Shown here in pieces: positions 38,308 through 64,000 of a stretch of DNA of 64,000 bases (its first letter is position 1; each line of letters begins with the position of its first letter). The notes beneath the pieces were generated by a model. It had not been told where the DNA came from. It did not search any database and was given only the letters and a program-made list of their open reading frames with translations. The translations under genes and the position numbers were made by a program. Source of the DNA: a virus (Duplodnaviria > Caudoviricetes); IMG/VR virus record IMGVR_UViG_3300030104_001945, positions 234 through 64,233 of that record; one strand, 5' to 3'.

Positions 38308-38384
38308 TTTTTACTTTCTTTAAAAATTTATTTATATATAAAAGATTATTATTATAAAGTAAAATTTTAATAGAAAGGAAAGAA
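38308..38384. promoter_or_regulatory. AT-rich divergent promoter region
   Basis: Between divergent helicase and replication operon; TATTAT/TATAAA boxes and AGAAAGG SD. Confidence 0.55.
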
Positions 38385-38726
38385 ATGAAAAAAGGTAAAG
38401 TATATGTTGTTCAAGAGAATCCTAAGTTTAGTGTTCTTACTGCTGGGCAATATGGAGAATTAAGTGTTCTACTTCCTTTTGGCTCTCAAGTCGTTTTAAG
38501 CGTAGCACCTACATTACAGGTGATTAGAAAAAAGTTAAAAGATTTTTCTGATGACGATTATCTAGTTGCTATTGGCGACCCTACTGCAATAGCTATTGCA
38601 TGTATGGTAGCGGCAGAAGTAAATAGAGGTGTAGTAAATATGCTTAAATGGGATAAGCGAGAAAAGATGTATTATCCAGTAACAATTGATATGCTAGGAC
38701 GAAAGGAGAAAGAGAAAAATGGCTGA
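38385..38726 (+). CDS. Hypothetical protein
   Basis: DDYLVAIGDP...LKWD; strong SD. Confidence 0.7.
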   Translation: MKKGKVYVVQENPKFSVLTAGQYGELSVLLPFGSQVVLSVAPTLQVIRKKLKDFSDDDYLVAIGDPTAIAIACMVAAEVNRGVVNMLKWDKREKMYYPVTIDMLGRKEKEKNG

Positions 38727-39300
38727 TGTAGATATTTTTCAATCACTAGAAGAAGATGCTAAACGTCAAAAGGAAATTCCTAATGACGAGAAGTTTAAAC
38801 AACTCAATACTCTTGCGAAAAGTTTAGTTGATACAAAAAACGATATTTCTGTAGCAGAAGAAAACGTAAGTAAGTTAAAAGAGAGTTATAAACAGATTAG
38901 GGAGAATGACCTTCCTGATATGATGAATTCTTTAAATATGGATCAGTTTAAACTGACAGACGGTACAGTTATCTCAGTAAAAGATGACGTATTTGCTTCA
39001 ATTAAAGCTGATAAGAATGTCGAAGCATTACAATGGCTAGACGATAATGGACTTGGAGATATTATTAAACATAAAATATCTATATCTTTTAATCGTGGAG
39101 AACATGAAGATGCTGAGAAATTTAAAGATATGTTTGACAAATCGTTTAAACAAGAGTTAGATGAGAAGTCGACAGTCCACCCTCAAACATTAAAAGCAAC
39201 AGTTAAAGAAATGGTTAATACCGGACAAACTTTACCTGATAATCTTTTCAATGTATATGAGGCGAAGATTGCTAATGTGAAAATACCGAAAGGAGAATAA
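38719..39300 (+). CDS. Conserved replication-module protein
   Basis: WLDDNGLGDIIK...VHPQTLKA motif. Confidence 0.7.
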   Translation: MADVDIFQSLEEDAKRQKEIPNDEKFKQLNTLAKSLVDTKNDISVAEENVSKLKESYKQIRENDLPDMMNSLNMDQFKLTDGTVISVKDDVFASIKADKNVEALQWLDDNGLGDIIKHKISISFNRGEHEDAEKFKDMFDKSFKQELDEKSTVHPQTLKATVKEMVNTGQTLPDNLFNVYEAKIANVKIPKGE

Positions 39301-39301
39301 A

Positions 39302-40060
39302 ATGGCCGATACACAAGTAGCGAAGAAAGCAAACTCAGCACTAAGTATTCCTGCAGAGGATTTACTCGCTGACGTTGGAAGAGGACTTGAAAAAGTTTCT
39401 TCTGACGATATGACGATACCGAGATTAGCTATCATACAAAGTGGTAGTCCTCAACGAAAAAAGAAAGACGATAAATATATAGATAACGCAGATGAGGGAA
39501 TGGTATTCAATACTGTTTCTAATGCTCTATATAAAGATACTTTCTATGTAGTACCGTGCGAATTTGAGAAATTATTTATCGAATGGGTACCACGAGAAAG
39601 TGGAGGTGGTTTAGTGACAATATATAACGCCTCTAATAAACCGCAGGCAAAAAAAGAAGAAAATGGCAGACGTTTTTTACTAGAAAATGGTAATCAATTA
39701 GTCGATACTGCTCAGCATTACGTTATGGTAATAGGAAAAGATGGTTCATATGAGCCAGCAGTAATGTCAATGTCATCTTCTTTATTAACAGTATCTCGTA
39801 ATTGGGTAACTAGAATGAAGTTACAACGAGAGAATGTTAATGGAAAGTTAATCGAGCCACCTACTTTTTATTACAAGTGGCCAGTAACTACTATTGAGAA
39901 AACAAACTCAGATGGCTCGTGGTTTATTTATAAAATAGGAAACCCCGAACCTGTAGGAGATGCTGATTTATATCAAGCAGCTAAAAGTTTATCCGATTCT
40001 GTAAGAAAAGGAACAGCTACTGCTGATGTAAGTTCAGATAACGATAATATACAATTTTAA
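39302..40060 (+). CDS. Probable single-stranded DNA-binding protein
   Basis: IPRLAIIQSGSPQ; acidic tail ending DNDNIQF; precedes primase. Confidence 0.65.
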   Translation: MADTQVAKKANSALSIPAEDLLADVGRGLEKVSSDDMTIPRLAIIQSGSPQRKKKDDKYIDNADEGMVFNTVSNALYKDTFYVVPCEFEKLFIEWVPRESGGGLVTIYNASNKPQAKKEENGRRFLLENGNQLVDTAQHYVMVIGKDGSYEPAVMSMSSSLLTVSRNWVTRMKLQRENVNGKLIEPPTFYYKWPVTTIEKTNSDGSWFIYKIGNPEPVGDADLYQAAKSLSDSVRKGTATADVSSDNDNIQF

Positions 40061-41560
40061 ATGTTATCTCAAGAGTTCTTTGACTTATTCAAGGGTCTTG
40101 AGCGTGCTCATGGCCGTTACGATTTAGCAACAGAAAATCAAGACGGCCAGAAGCAAGGGGGAACTGCACGTACAGTTCAAGAAACACTTACATTACACGA
40201 ATGGGATTTACACTTAAAAGGTGAACGAGGTCTCGGAGTTATACCGATTCGTGATGATAATAAAGTTTATTGGGGAGCAATAGACATTGACGTATATGAT
40301 TTAGATTTAGAAGAATTTAGCAAGAGCCTAGGCTCATCACCAATTATACCATGCAGGACTAAAAGTGGAGGATTACATTTATATGTTTTCTTTAAAGAAT
40401 CAATATTAGCTAAAAGTGTAGTTCCTAAATTAAGAGAAATAGCTACATTATTAGGATATGCTAGTGCAGAAATATTTCCTAAACAAATTAAAATAATATC
40501 TGAAAGAGGAGATGTTGGTAACTGGATAAATATGCCATATTTTGGTGGAGAATATTCTACAAGATATGCTTTTTACAATGGAAAAAGATTAAATTTAGAA
40601 GAATTTATAAATACAGCAAAAGAGAAAAGATTAAGTAATGTTAACGAAATTAAAATACCTAATTTTAAAAAAGAAAATAGTGAACTATTACCAGACGGTC
40701 CACCATGTTTACAGTATTTAGTTAAAACAGGGATACCAGCAGGATCAAGAAATAACGCACTATATAATTTAGGAGTGTATGCTAAAAAAGCTTATGCAAA
40801 TGATTGGGAAGAAAAAGTAGAAGATTATAATTTAGACTTTTTAAATCCTCCATTAAAATCAAGAGAAGTACAAACTGTTATAAGTTCTTTAAATAAAAGG
40901 TCTTACAATTATATGTGTAGCGAACCACCTATTCAACCTTTCTGTAATAGGTCGCTATGCGTATCTTGTAAGTTTGGAATATCAGAGAATGGAACTATGC
41001 CTAGAATAACTGGGATAACTAAAATAGTAACAGACCCTCCTACTTATTTTTTAACTGTTGACGATTTAAGAATTGGTCCACTCGAATCAATAGATATTCT
41101 TAATCAGAAAAACTTTCAACGTGTGGTATTTGAGCATATAGATAAAGCTATTCCTTTAGTTTCTCCTCATTTATGGATTGAAATGATGAACGATTTAATC
41201 GCTAAAGTAGAGATAGTTGAAGCAACTGCTGATTCTTCTAATAAAGGTAGACTATGGGAATTGTGCGAAAGATTTTGTACTGGCTCTAGTTCTTCAGATG
41301 CTATGGAAGATATATTAAGAGGTCAAGCTGTTACGATAGATAATAAAACATTATTTAGAATTAACGATTTTATGGAGTTTCTTGAGAAACACCGATTCAA
41401 AGAATTTAAATTGCATGAAGTTACTGCACATTTAAAAGAACGAGGAGCCAAACATGAAGCTAAGAAAGTAAAAGGTAAGCATGTTAACATATGGATTATT
41501 CCAGAGTTCGAAAAACAACAAGAAGATTTTACGGAGCCAAACATTGAGGAGGTATTTTAA
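40061..41560 (+). CDS. Primase (AEP/PrimPol type with PriCT domain)
   Basis: GAIDID, RTKSGGLHLY, NWINMPY, GPPCL...GSRNNAL. Confidence 0.85.
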   Translation: MLSQEFFDLFKGLERAHGRYDLATENQDGQKQGGTARTVQETLTLHEWDLHLKGERGLGVIPIRDDNKVYWGAIDIDVYDLDLEEFSKSLGSSPIIPCRTKSGGLHLYVFFKESILAKSVVPKLREIATLLGYASAEIFPKQIKIISERGDVGNWINMPYFGGEYSTRYAFYNGKRLNLEEFINTAKEKRLSNVNEIKIPNFKKENSELLPDGPPCLQYLVKTGIPAGSRNNALYNLGVYAKKAYANDWEEKVEDYNLDFLNPPLKSREVQTVISSLNKRSYNYMCSEPPIQPFCNRSLCVSCKFGISENGTMPRITGITKIVTDPPTYFLTVDDLRIGPLESIDILNQKNFQRVVFEHIDKAIPLVSPHLWIEMMNDLIAKVEIVEATADSSNKGRLWELCERFCTGSSSSDAMEDILRGQAVTIDNKTLFRINDFMEFLEKHRFKEFKLHEVTAHLKERGAKHEAKKVKGKHVNIWIIPEFEKQQEDFTEPNIEEVF

Positions 41561-41787
41561 TGACTGAAAGAAAAGATGTAGTAGTGAAAGTCAAAGGACT
41601 TTCAGTATTTGGAGAAAATAAATCTAAACCAAAGGAGAAAGAAAATGCAAAAATTATCAACAGGGATGATAAGAAAGACAGTACCGAGAAAAAAGAGTCT
41701 ACACATGGGAAAACATAATCCTATCTACACTAAACATAGAAAAGGAAAAGGACAATTTAAAAGAAAACAAACTCATTGGAGTCAATT

Positions 41788-42576
41788 ATGAAATATTTAT
41801 TTTTTGACGTAGAAACAACAGGATTATGGAGAAGGGATTTGGCACCAACTGATCCTAAACAACCTAAAATAGTTCAAATAGCTGCTCAGTTAGCAAGTGA
41901 AGATGATAAAGTTACTGCACAACTAGCTTGTATAATTCAACCAGATAAATGGACTATTCCAAAAGAAGCATCAGATATTCATCACATAACTGATAATATA
42001 GCTTTGCAACACGGCGTTCCTCTGATAAATGTATTAGCTATGTTTAATTCTTTAGCAGCACAAGCTGACGTATTAGTGGCTCACAATACATCATTTGATT
42101 TACAAATGGTATTAAGAGAATTTAATGCGATAGGAAAAAGTTTTAGAATTCCTAAAGAGCAACACTGTACGATGATGACTGCTAAAGATATTTTAAAATT
42201 AGAAAGTGATTTTGATGATTATAAGTTTCCTAAATTAGAAGAAACATATAAACATTTTCTAGGATCAGGAGGTTATCATAATTGGCACGATGCTTTAACT
42301 GATATAATAATATGCCGAATAATTTACTTCCACATGAAAGCGAAAGGAATAAAAATGGAAAAACCACGTGCAATGCCTAAAGCATTAATTAAAAATCTTG
42401 ACGAAAAAATATACAAAGAGTTTTTAAATCTTATAGAATCTATTAATGAAGATAATTTAAATGATTGGGAGAAAGGTTTTTTAAAAGATCAAAAAGAAAG
42501 ACACGAAAAATATAAAGAAAAAATACTTATGAGTGATAAACAAATGAATATTTTAAGAAAGATGAAAGACAAATGA
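41788..42576 (+). CDS. DEDDh 3'-5' exonuclease
   Basis: FDVETTG, AHNTSFD, HDALTD; ATG at 41788. Confidence 0.9.
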   Translation: MKYLFFDVETTGLWRRDLAPTDPKQPKIVQIAAQLASEDDKVTAQLACIIQPDKWTIPKEASDIHHITDNIALQHGVPLINVLAMFNSLAAQADVLVAHNTSFDLQMVLREFNAIGKSFRIPKEQHCTMMTAKDILKLESDFDDYKFPKLEETYKHFLGSGGYHNWHDALTDIIICRIIYFHMKAKGIKMEKPRAMPKALIKNLDEKIYKEFLNLIESINEDNLNDWEKGFLKDQKERHEKYKEKILMSDKQMNILRKMKDK

Positions 42577-43523
42577 ACATTTTAGTAACAGGTTGTGCTG
42601 GTTTTGTAGGATCACATCTTACAGAGCATTTAGTTAATAGAGGGCATACTGTTTATGGTATAGATAATTTATTAACTGGGCAAGAAAAAAATATAGGTAA
42701 TATACATAGATTTATTGAGGGTGATATATCTAATTCTTCTGATATAAATAAAATAGATATGGGAGGTCCTATTGATCTCATTTATAATTTAGCTTGTCCT
42801 GCAAGTCCTGATCATTATATAAAACATTCTATAAAAACTTTAGACACTTGTTATACCGGTACTAAAAATATTTTAGAGTTAGCTAAAACACATAATTCAA
42901 TAGTTATTCATACTTCTACATCAGAAGTATATGGTAATCCTGATCATACACCTCAAGAAGAAGATTATTATGGAAGTGTAAATTCTTTTGGACCACGAGC
43001 CTGTTATGATGAGGGAAAGAGAGTAGCAGAAGCATTAATTTATGAGTATATTAGATTATATAAATTAGACATCAAAGTAGCAAGATTATTTAATACTTAT
43101 GGGCCTCGTATGTCTGTTAACGATGGACGTGTTGTATCTAATTTTATATGTGCTGCATTACAAGATAAAGAATTATTACTTTATGGAAATGGTATGCAAT
43201 CTCGTTCTTTTTGTTATATCTCCGATACTATACACGCATTATTAGATTTAGCAGAAACTACTAAATTAAATAAACCTGTTAACATTGGTAATCCTGATGA
43301 GAAAAAAATATACAATATAGCAGAATTAATTATAAGAATGACTAGTTCTAAATCAGGAATAATGACAGTAGCACATAAAAAAGATGATCCATTACAACGA
43401 TGTCCTAATATAGAAAGAATTAATATGTTAATAGGCTGGCACCCTAAAGTAACATTATCAGAGGGACTAGAGAAAACCATAGAGTATTTTAGAGAATGTT
43501 TAACAAATCAAACACAAACGTAA
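42573..43523 (+). CDS. UDP-glucuronate decarboxylase (UDP-xylose synthase), extended SDR
   Basis: TGCAGFVG, LACPASP, STSEVYG, GPRACYDEGKRVAE, FNTYGPRM, DGRVVSNF, RSFCY, DDPLQR: UXS-specific motifs. Confidence 0.92.
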   Translation: MNILVTGCAGFVGSHLTEHLVNRGHTVYGIDNLLTGQEKNIGNIHRFIEGDISNSSDINKIDMGGPIDLIYNLACPASPDHYIKHSIKTLDTCYTGTKNILELAKTHNSIVIHTSTSEVYGNPDHTPQEEDYYGSVNSFGPRACYDEGKRVAEALIYEYIRLYKLDIKVARLFNTYGPRMSVNDGRVVSNFICAALQDKELLLYGNGMQSRSFCYISDTIHALLDLAETTKLNKPVNIGNPDEKKIYNIAELIIRMTSSKSGIMTVAHKKDDPLQRCPNIERINMLIGWHPKVTLSEGLEKTIEYFRECLTNQTQT

Positions 43524-45010
43524 TACTAGGTCCACCTGGAACTGGGAAAACTACTTCGTTATTAAATAAGCTTGAAGCTGAAATAGAGGCAGGAGTTAAA
43601 CCTCGAACTATTGGTTTCGTTAGTTTTACTCGTAGAGCAATTAAAGAATCAAGAGAAAGAACTATTACTCGATTTGATATAAATGAAGAAACAGATTTAG
43701 ATTATTTTAGGACACTTCATAGCATTTGTTTTCGTTCTTTAGGATTAAATGGAGAACAAATATTTAAGGGAAGTCATATTACTGAGTTTAAAAAACTTTT
43801 AAAAATAGATATGTCTGGTGGAATAGAAGAAGATGAAATAGTCGCATCAGGAATTAAAATAGGTGATAAGATGCTTTTTTGCGATCAGTTATCTAGGGCA
43901 ATGATGAAGCCACTAAGAGATACTTGGAGAAGTTTAGATTGCGAATACTCTTGGAAAGAACAAGAATTATTTTCTAATACATTTAGAAAGTTTAAAGAAA
44001 AAAGAGGTTTATCGGATTTCACTGATATGCTTATAACTTTCTTAAAAGATGGTGTAGCACCTCCATTAAAAGTTTTATTTGTTGACGAAGCACAAGATTT
44101 AACTATACTGCAATGGAAAGTAGTAAGTAAATTAGTTGAGAACTGTGATAGATTATATATTGCAGGAGATGATGATCAAACTATTTATAAATGGGCAGGA
44201 GCTGATATTGATACATTTTTAAATCTTCAAGGCAATATTGAAGTGTTACCTTATAGTTATAGATTACCTTCTAAAGTTTATGATTTAGCAATCGAGATTA
44301 GCTCACGTATTAAAAACAGATTCGCAAAAGAGTGGAAAAGTAGAAAAGAAGAAGGCACTGTTAATTATGTATCTGCAGTAGAATATATAGACATGAAAGA
44401 AGGATCATGGCTCATCCTCTCTCGGTATAACTATCAACTTTATGCTATACAAAAGTTTCTAAAAACTCAAGGATTTGTGTTTGAAAATAAGTATGGAGGG
44501 TTTAAAGCTAATAAACATGTTCAAGGAATTAGAGCATGGAAGAAATTACACGCAGGGGAAAAAATATGTTATGACGAAATTAAAAAACTATATTCTTGCT
44601 TACGTACCGGAAGTGGTATAGAAAGAGGATTTAAGAATTTAAAAACGATTGATGAAAAAGAAGAATATGAATTAGAAACTTTAGTCATGCATCATGGTTT
44701 AAAAGCTAGTGGTACTTGGCAAAAAGCATTAGAAATGATTCCAGAAGAAGATAAATATTATTATGAAGCACTTGAAAAGACAGGGGATATTGATGAAGAT
44801 AATCCTAGAATTAGATTGAGCACTATACATGGTAGTAAAGGTGCTGAAGCTGATAATGTAGTTTTAATGACAGATGTTTCTTATAAAACTTGGAAGAACT
44901 TAGTTAAAGATGACGATGATGAGCATCGTGTTTTTTATGTTGGAATTACAAGAGTAAAAAATAATTTATTTATTGTAAATCCTCAAACTGAATATAGCTA
45001 CAGGATATAA
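43496..45010 (+). CDS. UvrD/Rep-like SF1 helicase
   Basis: GPPGTGKT, FVDEAQD, AGDDDQTIY, TIHGSKGAE, FYVGITR. Confidence 0.93.
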   Translation: MFNKSNTNVILGPPGTGKTTSLLNKLEAEIEAGVKPRTIGFVSFTRRAIKESRERTITRFDINEETDLDYFRTLHSICFRSLGLNGEQIFKGSHITEFKKLLKIDMSGGIEEDEIVASGIKIGDKMLFCDQLSRAMMKPLRDTWRSLDCEYSWKEQELFSNTFRKFKEKRGLSDFTDMLITFLKDGVAPPLKVLFVDEAQDLTILQWKVVSKLVENCDRLYIAGDDDQTIYKWAGADIDTFLNLQGNIEVLPYSYRLPSKVYDLAIEISSRIKNRFAKEWKSRKEEGTVNYVSAVEYIDMKEGSWLILSRYNYQLYAIQKFLKTQGFVFENKYGGFKANKHVQGIRAWKKLHAGEKICYDEIKKLYSCLRTGSGIERGFKNLKTIDEKEEYELETLVMHHGLKASGTWQKALEMIPEEDKYYYEALEKTGDIDEDNPRIRLSTIHGSKGAEADNVVLMTDVSYKTWKNLVKDDDDEHRVFYVGITRVKNNLFIVNPQTEYSYRI

Positions 45011-45011
45011 T

Positions 45012-45680
45012 ATGGATATAAAATTAAAATATTTAAATAATTTTGAAAAGAAAATAGATAATGATATTTATAGTGAACCTAAATCTAAATTACATTATGG
45101 TGTAATAGAACCTCAAACTCAAAAATTTTTAGATACATTTGAAATTAAAGAAGATAAATCAGTTATAGATATAGGTTGTGGAGATGGATATTTTTTATCA
45201 CTATTACAAAAAGCAGGGTTTAAAAATTTAGTTGGAGTAACTAAACATGATGAAGATATAAAAAATTGCAGTAACTATGGATTAAAAGATATTAGAAAAA
45301 CTGATATGACTTTTACAGGGATAAAAGAAAATTTTGATGCTTTATGGTGTAGACATGTATTAGAACATAGTCCATATCCTTATTTAACTTTACATGAATT
45401 TAATCGTTTAGTTAAAATGGGAGGTAATGCTTATGTAGAAGTTCCTGAAGCTGAGGGATATATTAAACATGAAAATAATGCAAATCATTACTCTATGTTA
45501 ACGAAAAGAAATTGGGTATCTTTAATTTTACGATGTGGTTTTGATATAAATAAAATACAAGATATTGATTTAAGTATAAAAAATCCAGAATTTCAAGATG
45601 GGAATCCTTACCCAGAGCAATGGTGGGCTTTTTATTTAACTAAAACAGTCGAATTAAATTTTATGAAAGGAGAGTTATGA
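45012..45680 (+). CDS. Class I SAM-dependent methyltransferase
   Basis: VIDIGCGDG, FDALWCRHVLEH, LVKMGG. Confidence 0.88.
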   Translation: MDIKLKYLNNFEKKIDNDIYSEPKSKLHYGVIEPQTQKFLDTFEIKEDKSVIDIGCGDGYFLSLLQKAGFKNLVGVTKHDEDIKNCSNYGLKDIRKTDMTFTGIKENFDALWCRHVLEHSPYPYLTLHEFNRLVKMGGNAYVEVPEAEGYIKHENNANHYSMLTKRNWVSLILRCGFDINKIQDIDLSIKNPEFQDGNPYPEQWWAFYLTKTVELNFMKGEL

Positions 45681-46735
45681 AAGCAATAGGAAGTTATATA
45701 TTTGCTGGTGGATTCACTATCGGCGTTAAAAAACATTTTGATATTGAAGCACATTTAGAAGGTGATGGATATGGAGCTGATACATTTAGTTTAAATTATC
45801 CAGAAATACCAGTTTTTGTTGGTCCAGAAGATTGGCCTACAGAAAAATATAAAGATAAAATAGATTTTATATATGGTAATCCTCCATGTGCTCCTTGGAG
45901 TACGTTAGGTTCTGGAAGTAAAGGTGCAGATGCATGGAAAACTGATCCTCGTATTAGTTGTTGGAACGATGTATTTTCTTTACTTTATAAAATAAAACCA
46001 AAAGCTTTAGCTATTGAGTCAGTTCCTCGTGTTTATTCAGAAACAGGAGGTAGACCAATGATAATGGATTTTACAAGAAAAGCTAATGAAGAAGGATATG
46101 CAGTTACTCATTTACTAATAGATGGTCAATATGCTGGACTTCCTCATTCAAGAAAAAGATTTTTTTTCATAGCGCATAAAGGAAATTTTAATCCCCCTGC
46201 TCCTAACTGGAATCCTGCGCCAACTGTAGGAGAAGTGTTAGATGAATTAAAAGCAGATGGAATTGAAGCAGGACACACAGCAACGTTAAGTGAAAATGAA
46301 ATGAAATTAACTAAACTGGCTAAACCTGGAGAATCTTTAAGAAATATATGGGAAAGTTTAAACCCACCAGAAACTTGGAAAAGGTCTACTAAAGGAAGAA
46401 AAGGAGTTATAGGTAGACCTCAATTTATGAAATGGAGATTAACTAGAGAACAGATAATGGGAGTTATTGCTGGAAGTTTTTCTATACATCCAGAAGAAGA
46501 TAGGCTTTTAGGAATACAAGAATTATGTGCTTTCTCTGGATATCCAACAGATTATAAATTTGCTGGAGCAAAATCAGGGTGGCCTAGTTTATTAGCTAGA
46601 GGAGTAATGCCTCCAGTAGGTGAATGGGTAGCTAGAAATGTAAAAACAATGATTGAGTCAAATCAACCTTTCGAAGTTAATCATAAAATTATTGATTATC
46701 GTAAACCAACAACAGGAGATTTATTTAATGCTTAG
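45677..46735 (+). CDS. DNA cytosine-C5 methyltransferase homolog with altered SAM-binding motifs
   Basis: Catalytic GNPPC, IESV (motif VI), PHSRKRFF (motif VIII); motif I YIFAGG and motif X ARGV are atypical. Confidence 0.82.
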   Translation: MKAIGSYIFAGGFTIGVKKHFDIEAHLEGDGYGADTFSLNYPEIPVFVGPEDWPTEKYKDKIDFIYGNPPCAPWSTLGSGSKGADAWKTDPRISCWNDVFSLLYKIKPKALAIESVPRVYSETGGRPMIMDFTRKANEEGYAVTHLLIDGQYAGLPHSRKRFFFIAHKGNFNPPAPNWNPAPTVGEVLDELKADGIEAGHTATLSENEMKLTKLAKPGESLRNIWESLNPPETWKRSTKGRKGVIGRPQFMKWRLTREQIMGVIAGSFSIHPEEDRLLGIQELCAFSGYPTDYKFAGAKSGWPSLLARGVMPPVGEWVARNVKTMIESNQPFEVNHKIIDYRKPTTGDLFNA

Positions 46736-47108
46736 AGATATTGAAGAGTTCCATAAAAAATTTGGATTTAAAAAAAGACAAGGTATCAAAAATAATAAAG
46801 ATTTGGTAGACTTTCGGATTAAATTCTTAGAAGAAGAATTAAGAGAATTTAAAGAAGCAATTAAAGAAGAAGATGATGCGAAAGCATTAGATGCTTTAGT
46901 TGATTTAACTTATGTAGCTATAGGAACGGCTTATCTATTTGATTATCCTTTCTGGGTTGCATGGTCAGAAGTACAGAAAGCAAATATGGCAAAAGTAAGA
47001 AAAGAAAGTGAACGTTCTAAATTTGATGTAACTAAACCTAAGGGTTGGAAAGCACCTAATATAGAACAAGTTCTTCACACATTTAAAAAATGGAGCGCAT
47101 GGTCATGA
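46728..47108 (+). CDS. MazG-like nucleotide pyrophosphohydrolase (possible dCTPase/dUTPase)
   Basis: EEELRE...DALVDLTYVAIG...EVQKANMAK...KPKGW; AGGAG before ATG 46728. Confidence 0.85.
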   Translation: MLRDIEEFHKKFGFKKRQGIKNNKDLVDFRIKFLEEELREFKEAIKEEDDAKALDALVDLTYVAIGTAYLFDYPFWVAWSEVQKANMAKVRKESERSKFDVTKPKGWKAPNIEQVLHTFKKWSAWS

Positions 47109-48151
47109 AAGTATTAGTAACAGGATTTACTGCGAAAGGTATTGGCAGTGGTAAAAATGTATTAGAGATTGCGACAGCAGCTAATTGTTTACCAAGAGCA
47201 TTAAGAGAATGTGGAATAGAAGTTGATCATAAACCAGTTATACCTGGAGAAGATATATCAGAATATGATAAAGTAGTTGTATTTGCTTTTGCTCCTAATT
47301 CTTTACCATCATCTTATTTATATGGAGGTCTTTATACTTTATTGAAAAGACCTGACGCATACATAGCATTAGATGATTGGCAAACTAAAGATATAAAACA
47401 AGGGTGTGGTACTTTCGCACGTGATGGCCATTGGCGATTATGGAAAAGAGTAAGTAAAGCAGGTAACTCTGTTGGTAAAAAATTCTTTAATGAAGCACAG
47501 CCCTATAAAAAAGAAATGGAAGATTTAATTACGCAATTAGCTTTCGAACAGTGGCCATATAGAGTTCTAGCACCAGTTTATAAGGGTGGAGACGTATCTC
47601 AACTAGGAATAGATTCCGCAGAAATTATACCATGGGATCCAACTCCTGTTACCGATAGCTATAAAGCAGGAAGTAAATATAATCAATCTTTATTCTCAAG
47701 AATAGATTCACATGATGGACCTAAAAATAAAGAATGGATAATGGCTTCGTTAATTCAAAAACAGAGTTGGTTTAAACGTCAACATTTCGAGTGGAAAGTA
47801 ACTTGCTACGGTAATCCTAATTTAGGTCAAGAACGATTAACTGAACCAGAATTATATAATGAATACCTAAGAGTAAGAGGAATATTAATACCTCCTCATT
47901 ATCATACGATAAAAGGTAGTGGTTGGTGGAGAGTTCGTTATGGCATGATAGCAGACGCAGGTTGTATTGCTTATGGAGAACAAGAAGAAACTAAACTTTT
48001 TGGCGATGCATATAGAATTCATCATAGTGATATAGAAAAAATGAACGACAATGAATTAGATGATTTAGCTAAAGCGCAGAAAGAAGATTTTAATTCTACA
48101 GTATGGAATAAAAATAGATTAAATACGTTTATCGGAGATTACTTTTTATGA
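47105..48151 (+). CDS. GT-B DNA glycosyltransferase-like protein (T4 beta-glucosyltransferase-like)
   Basis: DISEYDKVVVFAFAPN resembles BGT DVNDYDRLIVVNSSIN; WWRVRYGMIADAG resembles BGT TLRVWETMASDA; similar length; context. Confidence 0.62.
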   Translation: MKVLVTGFTAKGIGSGKNVLEIATAANCLPRALRECGIEVDHKPVIPGEDISEYDKVVVFAFAPNSLPSSYLYGGLYTLLKRPDAYIALDDWQTKDIKQGCGTFARDGHWRLWKRVSKAGNSVGKKFFNEAQPYKKEMEDLITQLAFEQWPYRVLAPVYKGGDVSQLGIDSAEIIPWDPTPVTDSYKAGSKYNQSLFSRIDSHDGPKNKEWIMASLIQKQSWFKRQHFEWKVTCYGNPNLGQERLTEPELYNEYLRVRGILIPPHYHTIKGSGWWRVRYGMIADAGCIAYGEQEETKLFGDAYRIHHSDIEKMNDNELDDLAKAQKEDFNSTVWNKNRLNTFIGDYFL

Positions 48152-48753
48152 AAGACAGGAAGAATATAATTAGAGGTATAATTATAGTAGAAGGTGCAGA
48201 CTGTACTGGTAAAACTACTCTAACAGATTTACTTCGTAAAAAGTTTAAAGCACGTTATATGCATTTACGAATCCATAAAAGAATGGAGATATGGCATAAA
48301 GCAACTGTTCGTAGAGCAATAAGATTAGCTAAAGATGAGTTAGTTGTAATAGATAGGCATTGGCCATCAGAAGAAGTTTATTCTTACGAAAGAGCAGATG
48401 GCCCTGAATATAATCCTATTAAGTTGTATAAAAAATTAAAGAAAGCAAATACGTTATATGTATGGTGTGCGCCAGAAGATAGTGCTAGAGTTATAAAAGT
48501 ACATAGAAAAAAGAAAGAAGAACGACATGAAGAATATAGTGATATTACTCGAATTGTCGATAGATACAAACGTTCATGGTATGGTTTAAACTATGAGCAC
48601 GATAATTTTCTTAAATCTCTAGGAGAGTTAAGATGGCGAAAAAACTTCATACGATATGATGTTTTTAAAGAAGGTCATAAGATTGATAGTAAAACTTATG
48701 ATATAATTAATCGATTACGATATTTGAGAGGAGAAGCAGTATGGACGGTTTAG
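48148..48753 (+). CDS. dNMP kinase (thymidylate kinase-like)
   Basis: P-loop VEGADCTGKTT, VIDRHWPSE. Confidence 0.85.
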   Translation: MKDRKNIIRGIIIVEGADCTGKTTLTDLLRKKFKARYMHLRIHKRMEIWHKATVRRAIRLAKDELVVIDRHWPSEEVYSYERADGPEYNPIKLYKKLKKANTLYVWCAPEDSARVIKVHRKKKEERHEEYSDITRIVDRYKRSWYGLNYEHDNFLKSLGELRWRKNFIRYDVFKEGHKIDSKTYDIINRLRYLRGEAVWTV

Positions 48754-49595
48754 CAGCTTTAGCAGCAGATAATGTTTGGAATGATGCTATTTTAGATATT
48801 CAAGGTGGAGTAGAATCCGCACCTCGTGGTTTAGTAACACGAGAAAAAATAAATCATACAACGATGTGCGATATGAGATATCCTATCGTTACTAACACGA
48901 GAAGATTATTGGGTTATAAGTTTATGATTCAAGAAGCTATTTGGATATTAAGAGGGGATAATAGATTAAGTACAATAGAACCTTACTCTAAGATGATTGG
49001 TAAATTTAGTGATGATAAATATTTCTTTCGAGGTGCATATGGTCCTAAAATTATAGATCAACTTCAATATATATGTAAGTCATTAAAAGAAGATAGAAAC
49101 ACGAGACAAGCAGTTATAAATATTTGGAGAGAAAGTCCTCATGATACTAACGATGTACCTTGTACTGTATCTTTTCAATTTTTAATTCGTCAAGATAAAT
49201 TACATATCATAGCTAATATGCGTTCAAACGATTTGTGGTTAGGTTGGCCTTATGATAATTTTAATTTTTCTATGCTTGGCGCATACGTTGCTTTATTACT
49301 ATATGATATTTATAAAGTAGAAGTAGGATTAGGAATAACAACTATTAATGCTGGTTCACGTCATTTATATAAACCAAATTTTGAGTCAGCAGATATGTGT
49401 ACTCGTTCTAATTATGAAGATTATGTGAACTATAAACCATTGAATTTAAAGGATTATAGTAGTGCAGAAGATTTCTTAGAGCATTTAGAATTTGTATCTT
49501 TAGATAAAGGTCAAATTAACGAAATGAAAGTAAAAGCATTAGACCGTGAATATGGAAAAGGATTTGCCCATGAACTTTTCAACAAGGCCAAGTAA
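48741..49595 (+). CDS. Thymidylate synthase homolog, predicted dCMP hydroxymethylase-type
   Basis: GAYGP, RQAV, catalytic DVPCT, MRSNDLWLGWPYD with Asp at the E. coli TS Asn177/T4 gp42 Asp179 position. Confidence 0.82.
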   Translation: MDGLAALAADNVWNDAILDIQGGVESAPRGLVTREKINHTTMCDMRYPIVTNTRRLLGYKFMIQEAIWILRGDNRLSTIEPYSKMIGKFSDDKYFFRGAYGPKIIDQLQYICKSLKEDRNTRQAVINIWRESPHDTNDVPCTVSFQFLIRQDKLHIIANMRSNDLWLGWPYDNFNFSMLGAYVALLLYDIYKVEVGLGITTINAGSRHLYKPNFESADMCTRSNYEDYVNYKPLNLKDYSSAEDFLEHLEFVSLDKGQINEMKVKALDREYGKGFAHELFNKAK

Positions 49596-50031
49596 GCACG
49601 AAACTTTTTTAGAAATTGCTAAGACTGTCTCGGAACAAGCAACATGCATCCGGCGTAATGTTGGATGTGTGTTAGTTAATTCTAAAAATCATATTCTTGC
49701 AACTGGATATAATGGAGTTCCTGCAGGAGCAGTGCATTGTTTAGATTTACCTTGTAGTGGAGCAGAGTTTCCATCAGGAGAAGGATTAAATTCTTGCGAA
49801 GCGATTCACGCAGAACAAAACGCATTACTTCAATGTAAAGATATTTATGATATTGAAAAATGTTATTGTACAGTAAGTCCGTGTATGACGTGTGTAAAAT
49901 TATTATTAAATACTTCTTGTAGTATTTTAATTTTTCCTACTTTATATACAGACGTAGAGCCATTAGAACTTTGGAAAAAATCAGAAAGAGAGTATATTAT
50001 TTATGAACGACCTATTCAAACCCGCCAGTAA
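49570..50031 (+). CDS. dCMP deaminase
   Basis: ATGYNG, HAEQNA, SPCMTC zinc motifs. Confidence 0.92.
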   Translation: MNFSTRPSKHETFLEIAKTVSEQATCIRRNVGCVLVNSKNHILATGYNGVPAGAVHCLDLPCSGAEFPSGEGLNSCEAIHAEQNALLQCKDIYDIEKCYCTVSPCMTCVKLLLNTSCSILIFPTLYTDVEPLELWKKSEREYIIYERPIQTRQ

Positions 50032-51874
50032 CTGGAGACCTCCTGAGGTTTTAATTAATTACAGCGAGTCAAAAGCTTTAGCTATTGACACTGAAACGTA
50101 TGATCCTAATTTAAAAAAGAATGGACCTGGTGGATTTCGTAACGATGGATTCGTAGTAGGTATTTCTCTATGCGATGAGGAGGGAAGAAAATGTTATTTA
50201 CCCATAGCACACCAAGATGGCGGTAATCTCCCTAAAGACTTAATCGTATCGTATTTAAAAAACGCACTGGGGACGCCTAAAACGAAGATTTTCGCTAATG
50301 CATTATATGATTTAGAGTGGTTATCTACTCTAGGAATAAATACTCAAGGAAAAATATATGACGTTCAAGTAGCAGAAACTTTACTTAATGAGAATAGAAG
50401 GTCATTCTCTTTAGATAATATATCAGCAGATTATTTAGGTGAAAGAAAAGATGAATCACTTTTAGAAGATGCTGTTCGTTCACATTTCTCTGGAAGAGCA
50501 AATGTTAAAAGTAATTTATGGAGATTACATTCGTCATACGTTGGTCCTTATGCTGAGAAAGATGCTGAGCTGACTATGGAAGTTTTTAAAAAACAACACC
50601 CTTTATTAAAGCAAGAAGAATTACTTCCCGTTCTTGATATGGAATCTCGTATGATTCCTCTTCTGTTATCGATGAGAAAGAAAGGTGTTCGAGTTGACAT
50701 TGAGAAAGCATCGAAGCTAAAGGATACGATTTACTTAAAACAAAATGAAACGCAAAGACAGTTAGATACGATAATAGGATCAGAAGTAAATGTATGGGCT
50801 AATGAAAGTATTGCGAAAGCTTATGATTCGCAGAATATTAAATATACATACACGGCCAAAGGATCACCATCATTTACTCAAGACTGGTTAAACACTGCAG
50901 AAGATAATATTAGTCCTTTAATTTTACGAGTGCGAAAACTTTATAAGTTGAGAAGTACATTTATCGAAAACATGATCATTGAGAAATCAGTTAATGGAAG
51001 ATTGCATTGTCAATTACATTCTACAGGAACAGTAACAGGTAGATTTAGTTCATCACATCCTAATCTTCAACAAGTCCCTGCGCATGATCCTGAGTTAGCA
51101 CCTTTAGTAAGAGGTTTATTTATTCCTGAAGAAGAACACGATTGGGTATGTGTAGATTACGCACAACAAGAGCCACGATTACTCGTTCATTTCGCAAGTA
51201 AGACGAATAATGAATCAGCAAAATTGGCACAAAATTTATACAAAAATGATACACAAACTGACTTCCATACGATGGTTGCAGAGATGGCTGGAATCAAGAG
51301 AAAACAAGCAAAAACTATTAATTTAGGCTTGACTTATGGTATGGGAAAAAAGAAATTAGCAGCAGAATTAGGATTAAGTTTTGATGACGCAGAATCTCTA
51401 TTTGAGAAGTATCATCGCAACGTTCCTTTCGTTCAAGCATTAAACAATCAAGCTATCGCATTCGCTTCGACTAAAGGTTATATTAAAACTTTATTAGGAA
51501 GGCGCAGACATTTTAATTTATTCGAACCCACTGGTTGGGATAATTTTGGGAAGCCAGCATATCCGATTGAGAAAGCGAAAGAGATGTATAAAGGAATGAT
51601 ATTGAAAAGAGCACAAACGCATAAAGCTTTAAATTGCTTGATCCAAGGATCAGCCGCTGATGTTACAAAAGCAGCTATGTTAAAAGTATGGGACAGTAAT
51701 ATTATGGATATAGGATTAACGATACATGATGAGTTAGACTTCTCAGTACCTCGCACGAAAGAGGGCGAAGAAAAACTTAATGAAGTAGTTAATCTCATGA
51801 AGAACGCAGTTGAGTTAAATGTTCCATTAGAGGTAGACGTTGAGAGAGGAGCAAGTTGGGGAGAGATTAAGTGA
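50003..51874 (+). CDS. polA: DNA polymerase family A with 3'-5' exonuclease
   Basis: IDTET, TGRFSS..PNLQQVP, DYAQQEPR, KTINLGLTYG, IQGSAAD, IHDEL. Confidence 0.96.
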   Translation: MNDLFKPASNWRPPEVLINYSESKALAIDTETYDPNLKKNGPGGFRNDGFVVGISLCDEEGRKCYLPIAHQDGGNLPKDLIVSYLKNALGTPKTKIFANALYDLEWLSTLGINTQGKIYDVQVAETLLNENRRSFSLDNISADYLGERKDESLLEDAVRSHFSGRANVKSNLWRLHSSYVGPYAEKDAELTMEVFKKQHPLLKQEELLPVLDMESRMIPLLLSMRKKGVRVDIEKASKLKDTIYLKQNETQRQLDTIIGSEVNVWANESIAKAYDSQNIKYTYTAKGSPSFTQDWLNTAEDNISPLILRVRKLYKLRSTFIENMIIEKSVNGRLHCQLHSTGTVTGRFSSSHPNLQQVPAHDPELAPLVRGLFIPEEEHDWVCVDYAQQEPRLLVHFASKTNNESAKLAQNLYKNDTQTDFHTMVAEMAGIKRKQAKTINLGLTYGMGKKKLAAELGLSFDDAESLFEKYHRNVPFVQALNNQAIAFASTKGYIKTLLGRRRHFNLFEPTGWDNFGKPAYPIEKAKEMYKGMILKRAQTHKALNCLIQGSAADVTKAAMLKVWDSNIMDIGLTIHDELDFSVPRTKEGEEKLNEVVNLMKNAVELNVPLEVDVERGASWGEIK

Positions 51875-52269
51875 GTGAGAAAAATCTTTGGACTGCTTGT
51901 CGAAAGAAATGGCCTGACATATTTCTTCAACGAATTGAAACTGCAGTTGAAAGAGGAATCCCTGATTTGTTTTATTGTCACGATGGCGTCATGGGTTGGG
52001 TCGAAGGTAAATACATCGATAAGCCAGTTCATGAAACCAGTAAGTGTAGGACGAAAGTATCAGTAGAACAGATAGCTTGGCACAGATCCTTTAAACGAAA
52101 TAAAGGTGCGGTATTTCTCCTAGTAAAAGTATCGAGAGAAGTTTATTTATTCGACACAGACGAAGCAGAGAAGCTAAATTCTGGCGTTGTTTATACTAAA
52201 TTAAGAGAATTAGCTTTAGCTGAAGGGTGGGAAGATATTAAAGAATATTTGATAAAAAAGAATAATTAA
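51871..52269 (+). CDS. VRR-NUC/Holliday junction resolvase-like nuclease
   Basis: RIE...GIPD...WVEGK...QIAWH. Confidence 0.8.
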   Translation: MSEKNLWTACRKKWPDIFLQRIETAVERGIPDLFYCHDGVMGWVEGKYIDKPVHETSKCRTKVSVEQIAWHRSFKRNKGAVFLLVKVSREVYLFDTDEAEKLNSGVVYTKLRELALAEGWEDIKEYLIKKNN

Positions 52270-52326
52270 CTGTTTTTTTGTTCTTAAAAATAATTAATAT
52301 ATTAAAGTAACAGAAAGGAAAAATTT
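52268..52326 (+). promoter_or_regulatory. Early promoter plus SD
   Basis: GTTTTT-17-TAATAT then AGAAAGG. Confidence 0.6.
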
Positions 52327-53091
52327 ATGGATAATAAAGAATCTATAAAAAGCAAAATACAAAAGCTATTAGCTTTATCTCGTGACGAAGGTGCGAGTGA
52401 AGCAGAAGCTGCTTTTGCATTTAAGAAAGCTCACGAACTTCTGGCAACTTACAATTTAGATTTATCGGATATTAAACAAGTTAATGCTGACGAAATTCTA
52501 CATGAAAAGTTAATAGAAGCCATGCGAGATGAATGGATTAAAACTTTATATACCGCTACTTCCAAATTATATTTTTGTAAATATTTTTATGGCACTAAAA
52601 GAGTAGTAGATAATATGTATAAAGAATCCAATAAAGTAGTACATCATATAATTGGTAGAGATCATAATATTGAGATTACTAAAAGTATGGTAACTTATTT
52701 TGTTGATACTATAAAACGAATGGGAGAATCACATATCGCTCCTCTACCAGGCGATGGTAGACAATTAAATAAGATAAGACGAAATTATGAATTAGGTATC
52801 GCTCACCGATTGCGTGAACGTATTATAGAACTCTGGGCAGCTAGTGTTCGTCATGATCCCTCTGATAAAGTAGAGAATCAAAATAAAAATCTTCCTGCTC
52901 TCTATAAAACAGAATTACAACTCTGTGAAGATAGATTAAAGAAAGATGGAATAAGGTTATCTTCAAGAAGAAGTGGCTCAAGTATAACAGCCGGCGCAGC
53001 TTATAATAATGGTAAGCGTGACGGTAATAATGTTAATCTAAGTGGTCAGATAACCGGAGGGAGGGCGTCACGTCATCTTCTAAGCAATTAG
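52327..53091 (+). CDS. DUF2786-like protein
   Basis: KIQKLLALS...ASEAEA..A..KA.ELL..YNL N-terminus. Confidence 0.75.
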   Translation: MDNKESIKSKIQKLLALSRDEGASEAEAAFAFKKAHELLATYNLDLSDIKQVNADEILHEKLIEAMRDEWIKTLYTATSKLYFCKYFYGTKRVVDNMYKESNKVVHHIIGRDHNIEITKSMVTYFVDTIKRMGESHIAPLPGDGRQLNKIRRNYELGIAHRLRERIIELWAASVRHDPSDKVENQNKNLPALYKTELQLCEDRLKKDGIRLSSRRSGSSITAGAAYNNGKRDGNNVNLSGQITGGRASRHLLSN

Positions 53092-53108
53092 ACATAAATA
53101 AGACACCG

Positions 53109-53372
53109 ATGGTTCGTATCACGTGGTTAGATGCACGTGATACGGAAACCGGGTGGCTTGATATAAAAGATGTCATTGAAGCACCTTTAGCAATATGCCA
53201 AGAAGTTGGTTGGATGGTCGTTAATAATAATGAGAAAGTTGTTATTATGCGTTCTTACAGTAAAGATAAAGATGAAGTATCTGGCGGTGGGTCAATTGCT
53301 ATCCCTAAAGGTTGGATAACTAAAATAGAATACTTGGAGGTATCATATGGAGAAAGAAGCGATAATAGGTAA
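53109..53372 (+). CDS. Conserved small phage protein
   Basis: ITWLDA...GW...VGW...IPKGWI. Confidence 0.65.
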   Translation: MVRITWLDARDTETGWLDIKDVIEAPLAICQEVGWMVVNNNEKVVIMRSYSKDKDEVSGGGSIAIPKGWITKIEYLEVSYGERSDNR

Positions 53373-54051
53373 TGTATTCGGCAAAACTATTTATAAATCG
53401 TCAATCAAGGATCATCAATATTTAAATGGTAAAGTTGGACCTCTTATTAAGAAATTTGTAAAACAGAAACCAGGAAGTGTAGCTGCAACGACAGATGTAG
53501 AAGGTAATCTTAAAGCAACGATATTAGAAAATGCAGTTGATAATTTACATTTACAAGATGACTATAAAGAATTGTTTGATGCATTATCTTTTGATATAAA
53601 AGGATTTATGGCAGCGAAATCTTATGACGATAGTAAGTTTGATATAAACATTACTAAAGCATGGGCAACTTATACGAGTAAGGGACAAAATATCCCTTCA
53701 CATAAACATACTGCGTCACATTTTAGTTGTGTATATTATGTGCATAACGAAGGTATGGGCGATATTAAATTTGAACAGGAACTTTATTCTCATGATGGAT
53801 TTTTTATTCCACCAACAGAGGCTTATATAAAAGAATGGAATCAATTTAATTTTGCAAGTTATAAATTTGAAGTAAAGTCAGGGGATTTTATTATATTCCC
53901 CAGTAGTTTACTTCATCAAACTGAAACTAATAATAAAGATGATGCTAGAATAAGTATTTCAGCAGATATTCTTTTAACAATGAAAGAGGGGGTTAGTACA
54001 GAGCACTGTATTCCAAGTCCAAAAACTTGGAAAACAATATATACTTCATAA
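53347..54051 (+). CDS. 2OG-Fe(II) oxygenase (TIGR02466-like)
   Basis: HKH...SCVYY...GDFIIFPSSLLH...RISIS. Confidence 0.82.
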   Translation: MEKEAIIGNVFGKTIYKSSIKDHQYLNGKVGPLIKKFVKQKPGSVAATTDVEGNLKATILENAVDNLHLQDDYKELFDALSFDIKGFMAAKSYDDSKFDINITKAWATYTSKGQNIPSHKHTASHFSCVYYVHNEGMGDIKFEQELYSHDGFFIPPTEAYIKEWNQFNFASYKFEVKSGDFIIFPSSLLHQTETNNKDDARISISADILLTMKEGVSTEHCIPSPKTWKTIYTS

Positions 54052-63824: not shown

Positions 63825-63847
63825 TTACTAAATATATATTTAATAAT

Positions 63848-63883
63848 AAATCTCTCTAATTAATTTTAGAGAGATTTTTTTTT
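63848..63883 (+). terminator. Intrinsic terminator
   Basis: AAATCTCTCTAA / TTAGAGAGATTT plus T-run. Confidence 0.75.
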
Positions 63884-64000
63884 ATTTTTAAAATTAGTAA
63901 TCGAATAAAAAAATAAATCGTATTAAGTTTAATCGTAAAAAAATCGTATAAGTTTCTTTTACGATTTCGAGAAAGTTCGTGGGGTACGACTAAGCTTTAT

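Follow-up and report, generated by a model that had tools for sequence, protein, structure and literature searches.

Among the routes described by which phages place sugars on the cytosines of their DNA, the T-even pathway, consisting of the dCTPase gp56, gp42, the gp1 kinase, the cd deaminase, and α- and β-glucosyltransferases, resembles the locus considered here in its logic, in the roles of its enzymes, and in the possession of a dCMP deaminase. Other phages reportedly encode clusters of a C5-methyltransferase, a 5mYOX/TET enzyme and a glycosyltransferase (in part with an epimerase), which Burke et al. are said to have presented in PNAS in 2021. Phage glycosyltransferases acting on 5-hydroxymethylcytosine (5hmC or hmC) can depend on a partner epimerase, and hexose (Hex), N-acetylhexosamine (HexNAc), and hexuronic acid (HexA) adducts have been described (bioRxiv 10.1101/2023.12.21.572611); the words “xylose” and “pentose” do not occur in the main text of that preprint. 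Here we analyze a gene cassette that seems to serve cytosine hypermodification in an uncultured virus (Duplodnaviria; Caudoviricetes), IMG/VR record IMGVR_UViG_3300030104_001945, which comprises 64,233 bp at a CheckV completeness of 100%. The stretch analyzed, hereafter the window, consists of 64,000 nucleotides (positions 234 to 64,233 of the record) and covers nearly all of it.

Pentoses on phage cytosines have also been described. In RB69 and DLP3, flavin-binding homologs of thymidylate synthase (TS) provide 5-hydroxy-dCMP, and arabinose is linked directly to the oxygen so introduced (PMC13326640). An exchange of D169 for Asn (D169N, E. coli numbering) is proposed as diagnostic of such 5-hydroxy-dCMP synthases (Lee et al., NAR 2026, PMC13326640), nine D169N homologs having been tested in that work, which also attributes water access, and with it a non-methyl product, to an acidic residue at L143 and a preference for dCMP over dUMP to N177D. 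Shewanella phage Thanatos carries a pentose, putatively xylose, O-linked directly to the cytosine base (PMC12838424), and an assay of its TS homolog yielded 5-hydroxy-dC (PMC13326640). A different modification is due to CmoX from Synechococcus phage S-B43, a DNA cytosine C5-carboxymethyltransferase dependent on carboxy-S-adenosylmethionine (Cx-SAM) (PMC12783734; PDB 8yf3), in which the replacement of the motif X Asn by Arg permits the use of this cofactor (PMC12783734).

The most likely reading of the window cassette, which we put forward tentatively, is that an HTVC023P-like marine phage carries, inserted between its genes for the helicase and the family A DNA polymerase (PolA), a pathway of T4-like cytosine hypermodification in two stages, with xylosyl-hydroxymethylcytosine as product. 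The parts of this reading differ in strength. It is likely that the phage makes a modified cytosine and glycosylates it, and, given such a cytosine, it is very likely that the base is hmC; that the sugar, given glycosylation, is xylose has an even chance or slightly better, an assignment that rests on linkage.

Predicted base and transferase

Besides the TS homolog, the 64,233-bp genome has no TS-family gene, and a family search of this genome for ThyX, with a control that worked, found none. In an alignment with T4 gp42 and RB69 gp48, its Cys141, corresponding to E. coli C146, is invariant. D138 (in TNDVPC, where T4 reads SDFMC) occupies the position of E. coli L143, D164 (in RSND) that of D169, so that the D169N mark is not carried, and D172 that of N177, opposite the corresponding Asp in T4 gp42. 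The motif RSNDLWLGWPYD quoted in the preliminary description of this DNA is found in the protein, the alignment gives RSNDVVFGFRND for T4 gp42 just as had been stated there, and the assignment to an Asp-type, dCMP-type enzyme is upheld, with the hydroxymethylase signature D143/D169/D177 as in T4 gp42. Among the controls, RB69 gp48 and gp33 of Morganella phage Rgz1 read RSQN and hence N169, and Asn is present at position 177 both in the enzyme of Bacillus phage SP-10, a dUMP hydroxymethylase according to the annotation of AB605730, and in the canonical TS 7ta9 (rsadvflgvpfn). The nearest solved relative is the CMP hydroxymethylase MilA (5b6d, E 1.2e-18). As the TS homolog of the window keeps D169, hydroxymethyl chemistry is a better prediction than 5-hydroxycytosine, and hydroxymethyl-dCMP, formed from dCMP and methylenetetrahydrofolate, is the best prediction of its product on the basis of these residues. 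The preliminary description had pointed to arabinosyl cytosine as a precedent; this has to be corrected, for the RB69 modification is now reported to be arabinosyl-5-hydroxycytosine made by way of a D169N TS homolog (PMC13326640), and the window enzyme lacks that mark.

A scan of IMG/VR yielded 252 tblastn-confirmed relatives, and the best 80 of these, representing 78 distinct loci, were kept for comparison. Of the 78 loci, 68 contain a TS homolog, at a median distance of 557 nt from the transferase gene (maximum 2819 nt). In the residue survey, which considered 69 loci with a TS match, two were cut by a contig end, and each of the 67 readable proteins beside a transferase homolog carries D143/D169/D177. 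The co-occurrence of transferase and Asp-type TS across phages, suggested earlier as a check, is supported by these loci.

The transferase candidate of 348 aa finds no match in Pfam or NCBIfam, and a phmmer search against PDB sequences returned nothing below E 0.49. With its AlphaFold2 model (22 homologs; pLDDT 84, pTM 0.82), the first Foldseek match is T4 β-glucosyltransferase (BGT, 1qkj; E 6.8e-6, TM 0.57), with further GT-B enzymes next. VIA-align superimposes the model on T4 BGT 1j39 with a Z score of 17.5 and a root-mean-square deviation of 3.7 over 284 residues, followed by SenB (Z 16.3) and T4 α-glucosyltransferase (AGT; Z 14.6), and the matches listed by both programs are glycosyltransferases. 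The description of the 47105-48151 product as a BGT-like GT-B protein, for which a structural comparison with T4 BGT had been recommended, is borne out at the level of the fold, T4 BGT being the best solved match. We consider the protein a candidate DNA hydroxymethylcytosine glycosyltransferase, for which linkage to gp42-type TS genes supports 5hmC as the acceptor. The family is large: a profile search of 1.84 billion entries finds 719 cluster representatives at E<=1e-3, of which 288 reach E<=1e-30.

Sugar supply and conservation of the cassette

The gene product predicted earlier to be a UDP-glucuronate decarboxylase is a genuine member of this family (UDP-xylose synthase, UXS). Its best solved relatives are the human UXS1 structures 4gll and 2b69 (E 7.5e-90, 304 bits), and the next family of short-chain dehydrogenases/reductases (SDRs) follows at 118 bits, ArnA at about 93 bits. 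The stretches GCAGFVGSH (NAD site), TSEVYG, and YDEGKR align with human UXS1; the latter two we take to be the catalytic Thr/Glu and Tyr-x3-Lys of UXS. Orthologs are present in 11 of the 78 loci (phmmer 330-708 bits, all other SDRs below 60), and YDEGKR is kept in all 11. In a quick maximum-likelihood tree of the transferases, midpoint-rooted and supported only by the Shimodaira-Hasegawa-like approximate likelihood ratio test (SH-aLRT), the transferases of UXS loci form one group of 14 rows (SH-aLRT 95), composed of 10 of the 11 UXS loci, the window transferase, and three contigs cut before the UXS position. Its sister is a group of 25 rows without UXS. For this tree, identical rows were collapsed (73 to 57), sequences below 300 aa were dropped, and stand-alone open reading frames (ORFs) of C5-methyltransferases that were matched by the fusion-containing profile were excluded by rule; the eleventh UXS locus, L018, is missing, as no transferase ORF was extracted from it, although tblastn found a transferase there. 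Eleven positions distinguish the transferases of the UXS clade from those without UXS, which is no more than a lead. The co-occurrence of UXS with the cassette, likewise suggested earlier as a check, is seen within one transferase clade and in 11 of the 78 loci.

Elsewhere in the transferase family, other sugar-tailoring genes occur as neighbors. The Rgz1 transferase is found near an arabinose-5-phosphate isomerase and a sugar nucleotidyltransferase, GalE-like epimerases adjoin the family in loci L067-L080, and a UDP-galactopyranose mutase gene lies directly beside the transferase homolog in Erwinia phage FBB1 (L087, 3946-6071) and phage DSL-LC01 (L088, 8992-11128), which suggests a galactofuranose decoration in these two sequenced, culturable isolates. 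Together with the clade pattern of UXS, such neighbors make UDP-xylose the likeliest donor in the window phage. A different SDR of about 285 aa is encoded some 6 kb downstream of the transferase in three loci without UXS (L022:17100-17957, L042:17099-17926, L049:6355-7212); that of L022 matches GalE and heptose-epimerase models weakly, and these proteins may represent an alternative sugar supply.

The gene order exonuclease-[UXS]-UvrD-[SAM methyltransferase]-C5-methyltransferase-MazG-transferase-Tmk-TS-dCMP deaminase-PolA, where SAM stands for S-adenosylmethionine and brackets denote genes not always present, is conserved in loci L006-L058, and this recurrence argues that the arrangement is not due to chance. 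In distant T4-like environmental phages, recognizable by gp45 clamp and gp44 clamp-loader genes nearby, a gp42-like hydroxymethylase, a dCMP deaminase, the transferase, and the C5-methyltransferase homolog are encoded side by side. HTVC027P and 023Pt_psg01, the cultured relatives with respect to the polymerase, share the primase-helicase-PolA backbone and are devoid of the cassette, which is therefore an inserted module. Taken together, the cassette is real and conserved, and it probably functions in hypermodification.

Roles for the remaining enzymes are suggested by their families. The small SAM methyltransferase matches the DVU_1556 family, UbiG, and CmoB weakly and occurs in 10 of the 78 loci; nine of these carry UXS, and the sequence of L011, the remaining one, is cut upstream of the place expected for UXS. 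The enzyme is a candidate sugar O-methyltransferase. The MazG-like protein, an all-α NTP pyrophosphohydrolase by family, is a candidate dCTPase. The Tmk-like kinase, with P-loop matches to PF02223 and TIGR00041, is a candidate hydroxymethyl-dCMP kinase, and a profile built from its homologs also matches RB69 gp45, the “nucleotide kinase” encoded beside the transferase and the TS homolog of that phage (PMC13326640, Table 1). A dCMP deaminase follows the TS homolog in 63 of the 78 loci. PolA is 40-44% identical to the polymerases of phage 023Pt_psg01 and the Pelagibacter phages HTVC027P and HTVC023P. The UvrD-type helicase, also encoded in the cassette-less HTVC027P and 023Pt_psg01, is part of the replication backbone and stands outside the modification chemistry.

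In the pathway that we propose from these family memberships and residues, the MazG-like enzyme would return dCTP to dCMP before replication, the TS homolog would convert dCMP and methylenetetrahydrofolate to 5-hydroxymethyl-dCMP, and the Tmk-like kinase together with a host NDP kinase would raise this to hydroxymethyl-dCTP, which PolA would incorporate into DNA. Leftover dCMP would be drained by the dCMP deaminase to dUMP and, via the host thymidylate synthase, to dTMP. After replication, the BGT-like GT-B enzyme would move a sugar from a UDP-sugar onto the hydroxymethyl group, and in the subclade with UXS the phage enzyme would convert UDP-glucuronate of the host to UDP-xylose, so that xylosyl-hydroxymethylcytosine would be the most likely product. 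The small SAM methyltransferase may add an O-methyl group to the sugar, and the C5-methyltransferase homolog would cooperate with the transferase in some step on the DNA.

The C5-methyltransferase homolog and competing explanations

The C5-methyltransferase homolog scores 98.9 bits against PF00145 (cut-off 22), and its best solved match, M.HaeIII, reaches 39.8 bits only. It keeps the catalytic PC (in NPPC), the Glu of ESV, and RKRFF, with NPPC and ESV conserved across the family, but motif I in the SAM pocket reads IFAGGF instead of FxGxGG, and motif X is ARGV in place of the GNAV of DNMT1, i.e., Arg replaces Asn. The T4-like branch of these homologs retains Asn in motif X (QNVP). The gene is present in 68 of the 78 loci at a median distance of 391 nt from the transferase gene (maximum 2335 nt), and in four of the 10 loci without it the transferase lies at the very start of the DNA examined. 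In three loci both are fused (L053:8399-11011, L055:8039-11005, L056:2-2428); in the 870-aa fusion of L053, the N-terminal part is 42% identical to the window C5-methyltransferase homolog (E 6e-89) and the C-terminal part 35% identical to the window transferase (E 3e-62). Four more such fusions measure 880-922 aa. Of the 150 best profile matches, 16 are at least 750 aa long, and of 10 of these that were scanned, nine contain PF00145, three in addition a domain of the uracil-DNA glycosylase (UDG) superfamily, and two inteins. The fusion proteins are P0022-P0025, P0040, P0042, P0047, P0053, P0061, P0066, P0067, P0069, and P0073; the UDG-superfamily domain is located between the methyltransferase and transferase parts in P0042, P0061, and P0066 and, by precomputed Pfam assignment, in P0025, and LAGLIDADG inteins interrupt the methyltransferase part in P0042 and P0069. 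A family search of the window genome for UDG, with a working control, found none. A prediction of the complex between the C5-methyltransferase homolog and the transferase from their own alignments scored 0.00, which speaks neither for nor against binding. An added methylation step, for which the preliminary description had left room, is not evident from these data and seems unlikely; the protein is rather a companion of the transferase that is conserved, in some cases fused to it, and altered in its cofactor pocket.

Several findings weigh against the xylosyl-hmC pathway. MilA, the relative of the TS homolog mentioned above, acts on CMP, for an antibiotic and not for DNA precursors, and the only solved match of the MazG-like protein, DR2231, is weak (E 7.8e-4). 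The transferase and T4 BGT show no similarity by BLASTP (E 0.87), SenB comes within about 1 Z unit of T4 BGT as a structural match, and the GT-B fold specifies neither acceptor nor donor. Members of the transferase family are paired with an N169-type TS in Rgz1, so the family is not bound to hmC alone. DNA fully substituted with hmC would offer a C5-methyltransferase homolog no substrate, for which reason the pathway as drawn is incomplete. As to the sugar, the UXS gene lies some 3.6 kb ahead of the transferase gene and not next to it, and the sister clade without UXS retains a transferase 48-52% identical to that of the window, which implies that the enzyme has no need of UXS as such. A search of the 64,233-bp genome for UDP-glucose dehydrogenase (Ugd, PF03721) found none, with the control positive in 13 of 14 genomes, and UDP-glucuronate must accordingly be supplied by the host. 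UXS is also rare in GenBank, with matches at E<=1e-30 in 10 of 50,697 phage records, and the single context inspected, in “Aphanizomenon phage Yong-DA” (L085, ON073792.1), was set aside as a polysaccharide locus. In positions 1-12933 of L085, Wzy polymerase, Ugd, GDP-mannose dehydrogenase, and a polysaccharide export protein surround UXS, and the stretch resembles the polysaccharide locus of a bacterium more than DNA of a phage. Of the pathway claimed in the preliminary description, the dCMP-type TS, the GT-B fold, and UXS thus stand, and it is xylose as the transferred sugar that these last points call into question.

The distance of UXS from the transferase gene, its rarity, and the sister clade, in which the remaining cassette is retained as well, would also fit a glycosyl-hmC whose sugar, for example glucose, is taken from the host. 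UXS would then have a different purpose: as an auxiliary metabolic gene it might remodel the surface glycans of the host, or it might steer the UDP-sugar pool; UDP-xylose feedback-inhibits UDP-glucose dehydrogenase, which would spare UDP-glucose. We regard this explanation as rather unlikely, in view of a UXS gene that lies within the overlapping replication and modification run, is confined to a single transferase clade, and travels with the small SAM methyltransferase, which occurs in no locus showing the UXS position without UXS, and in view of the sugar-tailoring genes found beside the transferase family in other lineages. More doubtful still is that the C5-methyltransferase homolog and the transferase convert hmC or residual cytosine to an undescribed base, of which the sugar would be a part or an intermediate. 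The proximity of both genes in most loci, their fusions, and the domains of the long members favor it, as do the preserved catalytic PC and Glu and the Arg in place of the motif X Asn, as in the Cx-SAM-using CmoX (PMC12783734). Against this, the Asn persists in the T4-like branch, a search of the window genome for CmoA (TIGR00740), with a control that worked, gave no match, and the window protein reads NPPC and not the SPPC that defines CmoX (PMC12783734). In its boldest form, to which we give an equally low probability, the BGT-like transferase and the rewired methyltransferase homolog would be a two-enzyme machine turning pre-replicative hmC into an undescribed base, here a methyl-xylosyl cytosine derivative that would be made on UDP-xylose from the phage enzyme, O-methylated, and present in abundant ocean viruses.

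For the type of base found in RB69 and DLP3, 5-hydroxycytosine with a pentose O-linked at C5 itself, one may point to the homology of the window transferase to Rgz1 gp40 (26% identity, E 3e-24), which belongs to an arabinose-type cluster with an N169 TS, and to the grouping of kinase, transferase, and TS genes as in RB69 gp45-48 (PMC13326640, Table 1). Yet the window enzyme retains D169, and the published diagnostic is D169N (PMC13326640); the same D169 in all 67 readable metagenomic TS partners makes this a very unlikely alternative. Rgz1 gp40 moreover shows no similarity to RB69 gp47, the one half of the split RB69 arabinosyltransferase 1 that was compared, and a placement of the window transferase in the published “arabinosyltransferase 1” family is accordingly unsupported. 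Ordinary nucleotide metabolism, in which the TS homolog would make dTMP, the other genes would be unrelated housekeeping functions, and the DNA would be unmodified, is compatible with an AT-rich genome (about 33% GC in the window) and with the frequency of dCMP deaminase and kinase genes in phages that merely boost dTTP. It is extremely improbable, given Asp instead of Asn at the position that discriminates dUMP from dCMP, a further Asp at that of L143, and a BGT-like transferase and C5-methyltransferase homolog that are conserved no farther than 2.9 kb from the TS gene. Weighing these explanations, xylosyl-hmC remains the reading that we prefer.

Genomic setting and relation to described systems

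Almost every gene of the window lies on the plus strand, and positions 41776-52269 form an unbroken run of 12 genes on this strand (Table 1), in which all 11 junctions overlap by 4-50 nt or leave a gap of 1 nt. The genes that had been listed as one coupled run ahead of the polymerase are all present and correctly named; the list had omitted only the UvrD-type helicase gene. PHROGs assignments agree with the Pfam names across the cassette.

Table 1. Genes of the plus-strand run that contains the proposed cassette (window coordinates).
Feature	Position	Strand	Family evidence or remark
RNase T-type exonuclease	run start 41776	+	first gene of 12-gene run
UDP-glucuronate decarboxylase / UDP-xylose synthase (UXS), SDR	42573-43523	+	PF01370 E 1.5e-50
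UvrD/Rep-type helicase	43496-45010	+	PF00580 E 2.1e-29; phrog_1967
Class I SAM methyltransferase, small-molecule type	45012-45680	+	PF13489, PF08241
C5-cytosine methyltransferase homolog	45677-46735	+	PF00145 E 5.1e-28
MazG/PRA-PH pyrophosphohydrolase	likely start 46728, end 47108	+	PF01503 E 6.8e-10; phrog_671 E 4.7e-28
GT-B transferase candidate (348 aa)	47105-48151	+	no Pfam family; phrog_14998 “unknown function”
Tmk-like nucleotide kinase	48148-48753	+	phrog_761 E 6.7e-13; Pfam matches P-loop stretches only
TS homolog	48741-49595	+	PF00303 E 1e-18
dCMP deaminase	49546-50031	+	PF00383 E 1.1e-18; phrog_174 E 3.8e-36
Family A DNA polymerase (PolA)	50003-51874	+	similar to PolA of HTVC027P, HTVC023P, and 023Pt_psg01
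VRR-NUC-like gene	run end 52269	+	named by position as in MW202510; no Pfam family found

A megablast of the 7.5-kb region against GenBank phages gave no match. Scans of positions 38000-53500 gave no signal for promoters (61 promoter-like sites, 73.3 expected) or terminators (six terminator-like sites, 5.1 expected). The sole long minus-strand gene (36838-38307) encodes a Snf2/ZorD-like helicase domain protein. Downstream of the polymerase gene, positions 53347-54051 encode a 2-oxoglutarate-Fe(II) oxygenase (PF13759, TIGR02466) that is not TET/JBP-like and is shared with few close relatives only (L006, L008). Within 519 nt at positions 63461-63979, the dinucleotides CA, CC, TG, and GG are all absent and CG and CT occur 24 times each; window-wide, the depleted dinucleotides have odds ratios near 1, and the gap may reflect a context-specific modification or restriction pressure on the DNA that enters first. 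In two further phages, the cultured Pelagibacter phage HTVC200P (L005, 5445-6723) and the freshwater podovirus MW202510 (L004, 5956-8253), a Tmk-like kinase adjoins a D143/D169/D177 TS homolog and no transferase occurs within the stretch read, so that hydroxymethylcytosine without a sugar may be present in the DNA of both.

If the proposal is correct, a xylosyl-hydroxymethylcytosine fed by UXS would be a type of sugar on cytosine that was not found described in the literature searched. That search, in which supplementary tables were outside the scope, returned no report of xylosyl-hydroxymethylcytosine, of UXS in phage DNA modification, or of the cassette in pelagiphage-like podoviruses. The earlier statement that no xylosyl decoration of cytosine was known therefore stands for xylosyl-hmC, but not for cytosine in general, given the putative xylose of Thanatos (PMC12838424). 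The phages concerned would be relatives of the pelagiphage-type podoviruses, and their lineage is well represented among marine viromes, as the 252 IMG/VR relatives illustrate. Sugar-modified DNA of RB69 and Thanatos is reported to withstand restriction enzymes as well as Cas nucleases and to be difficult to sequence in its native form (PMC12838424), so that abundance estimates and models of host defense for such phages could be affected. Being compact and clonable, the cassette would also provide a test bed for the role of the often fused C5-methyltransferase-like partner in a setting where no unmodified cytosine should remain.

Compared with the clusters of C5-methyltransferase, TET enzyme, and glycosyltransferase, the window would share the 5hmC handle and the reliance of the transferase on a partner NDP-sugar enzyme, and it shares a C5-methyltransferase within the cluster (bioRxiv 10.1101/2023.12.21.572611). 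In those clusters, however, cytosine is methylated after replication and then oxidized, whereas hmC of the window phage would be formed before replication via the TS homolog; a Tet_JBP search of the window genome gave no match, which is weak evidence since the control was positive nowhere. With CmoX, the window C5-methyltransferase homolog has the C5-methyltransferase fold and the Arg for the motif X Asn in common (PMC12783734). It differs in scoring 33.7 bits against 8yf3, below its M.HaeIII match, in NPPC versus SPPC, and in its partners, which are a glycosyltransferase and a predicted dCMP hydroxymethylase and not an amide ligase as for CmoX (PMC12783734).

The pentose-bearing phages are closer in other respects. 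RB69 and DLP3 likewise group kinase, first transferase, and TS homolog and make their own UDP-pentose donor (PMC13326640), and the arabinosyl-5-hydroxycytosine group shares the transferase family with the window through Rgz1 gp40. In contrast to the window enzyme with D169, their TS homologs carry D169N and hydroxylate with the use of flavin, and their sugar derives from ribulose-5-phosphate by an isomerase, a kinase/uridylyltransferase, and a phosphatase (PMC13326640), unlike the UDP-xylose that the window phage would obtain from UDP-glucuronate by UXS. Thanatos resembles the window in a pentose on cytosine, which for the window is predicted, and in a phage-encoded enzyme that forms UDP-xylose, but Thanatos is T4-like, and its UDP-xylose comes from a pyrophosphorylase and not from UXS (PMC12838424).

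To the T-even phages, finally, the window is linked by the three Asp residues of its TS homolog and by the fold of its transferase, whose best solved match is T4 BGT. It is set apart from them by its PolA-type marine phage genome with an HTVC023P-like backbone in place of that of a T4-like myovirus, by a kinase that is Tmk-like and not gp1-like, by a transferase without sequence similarity to BGT, by a UXS and a small SAM methyltransferase of its own, and by a C5-methyltransferase homolog that has no T4 counterpart. Xylosyl-hydroxymethylcytosine, as predicted here, would be a new variation on the sugar camouflage of phage T4.

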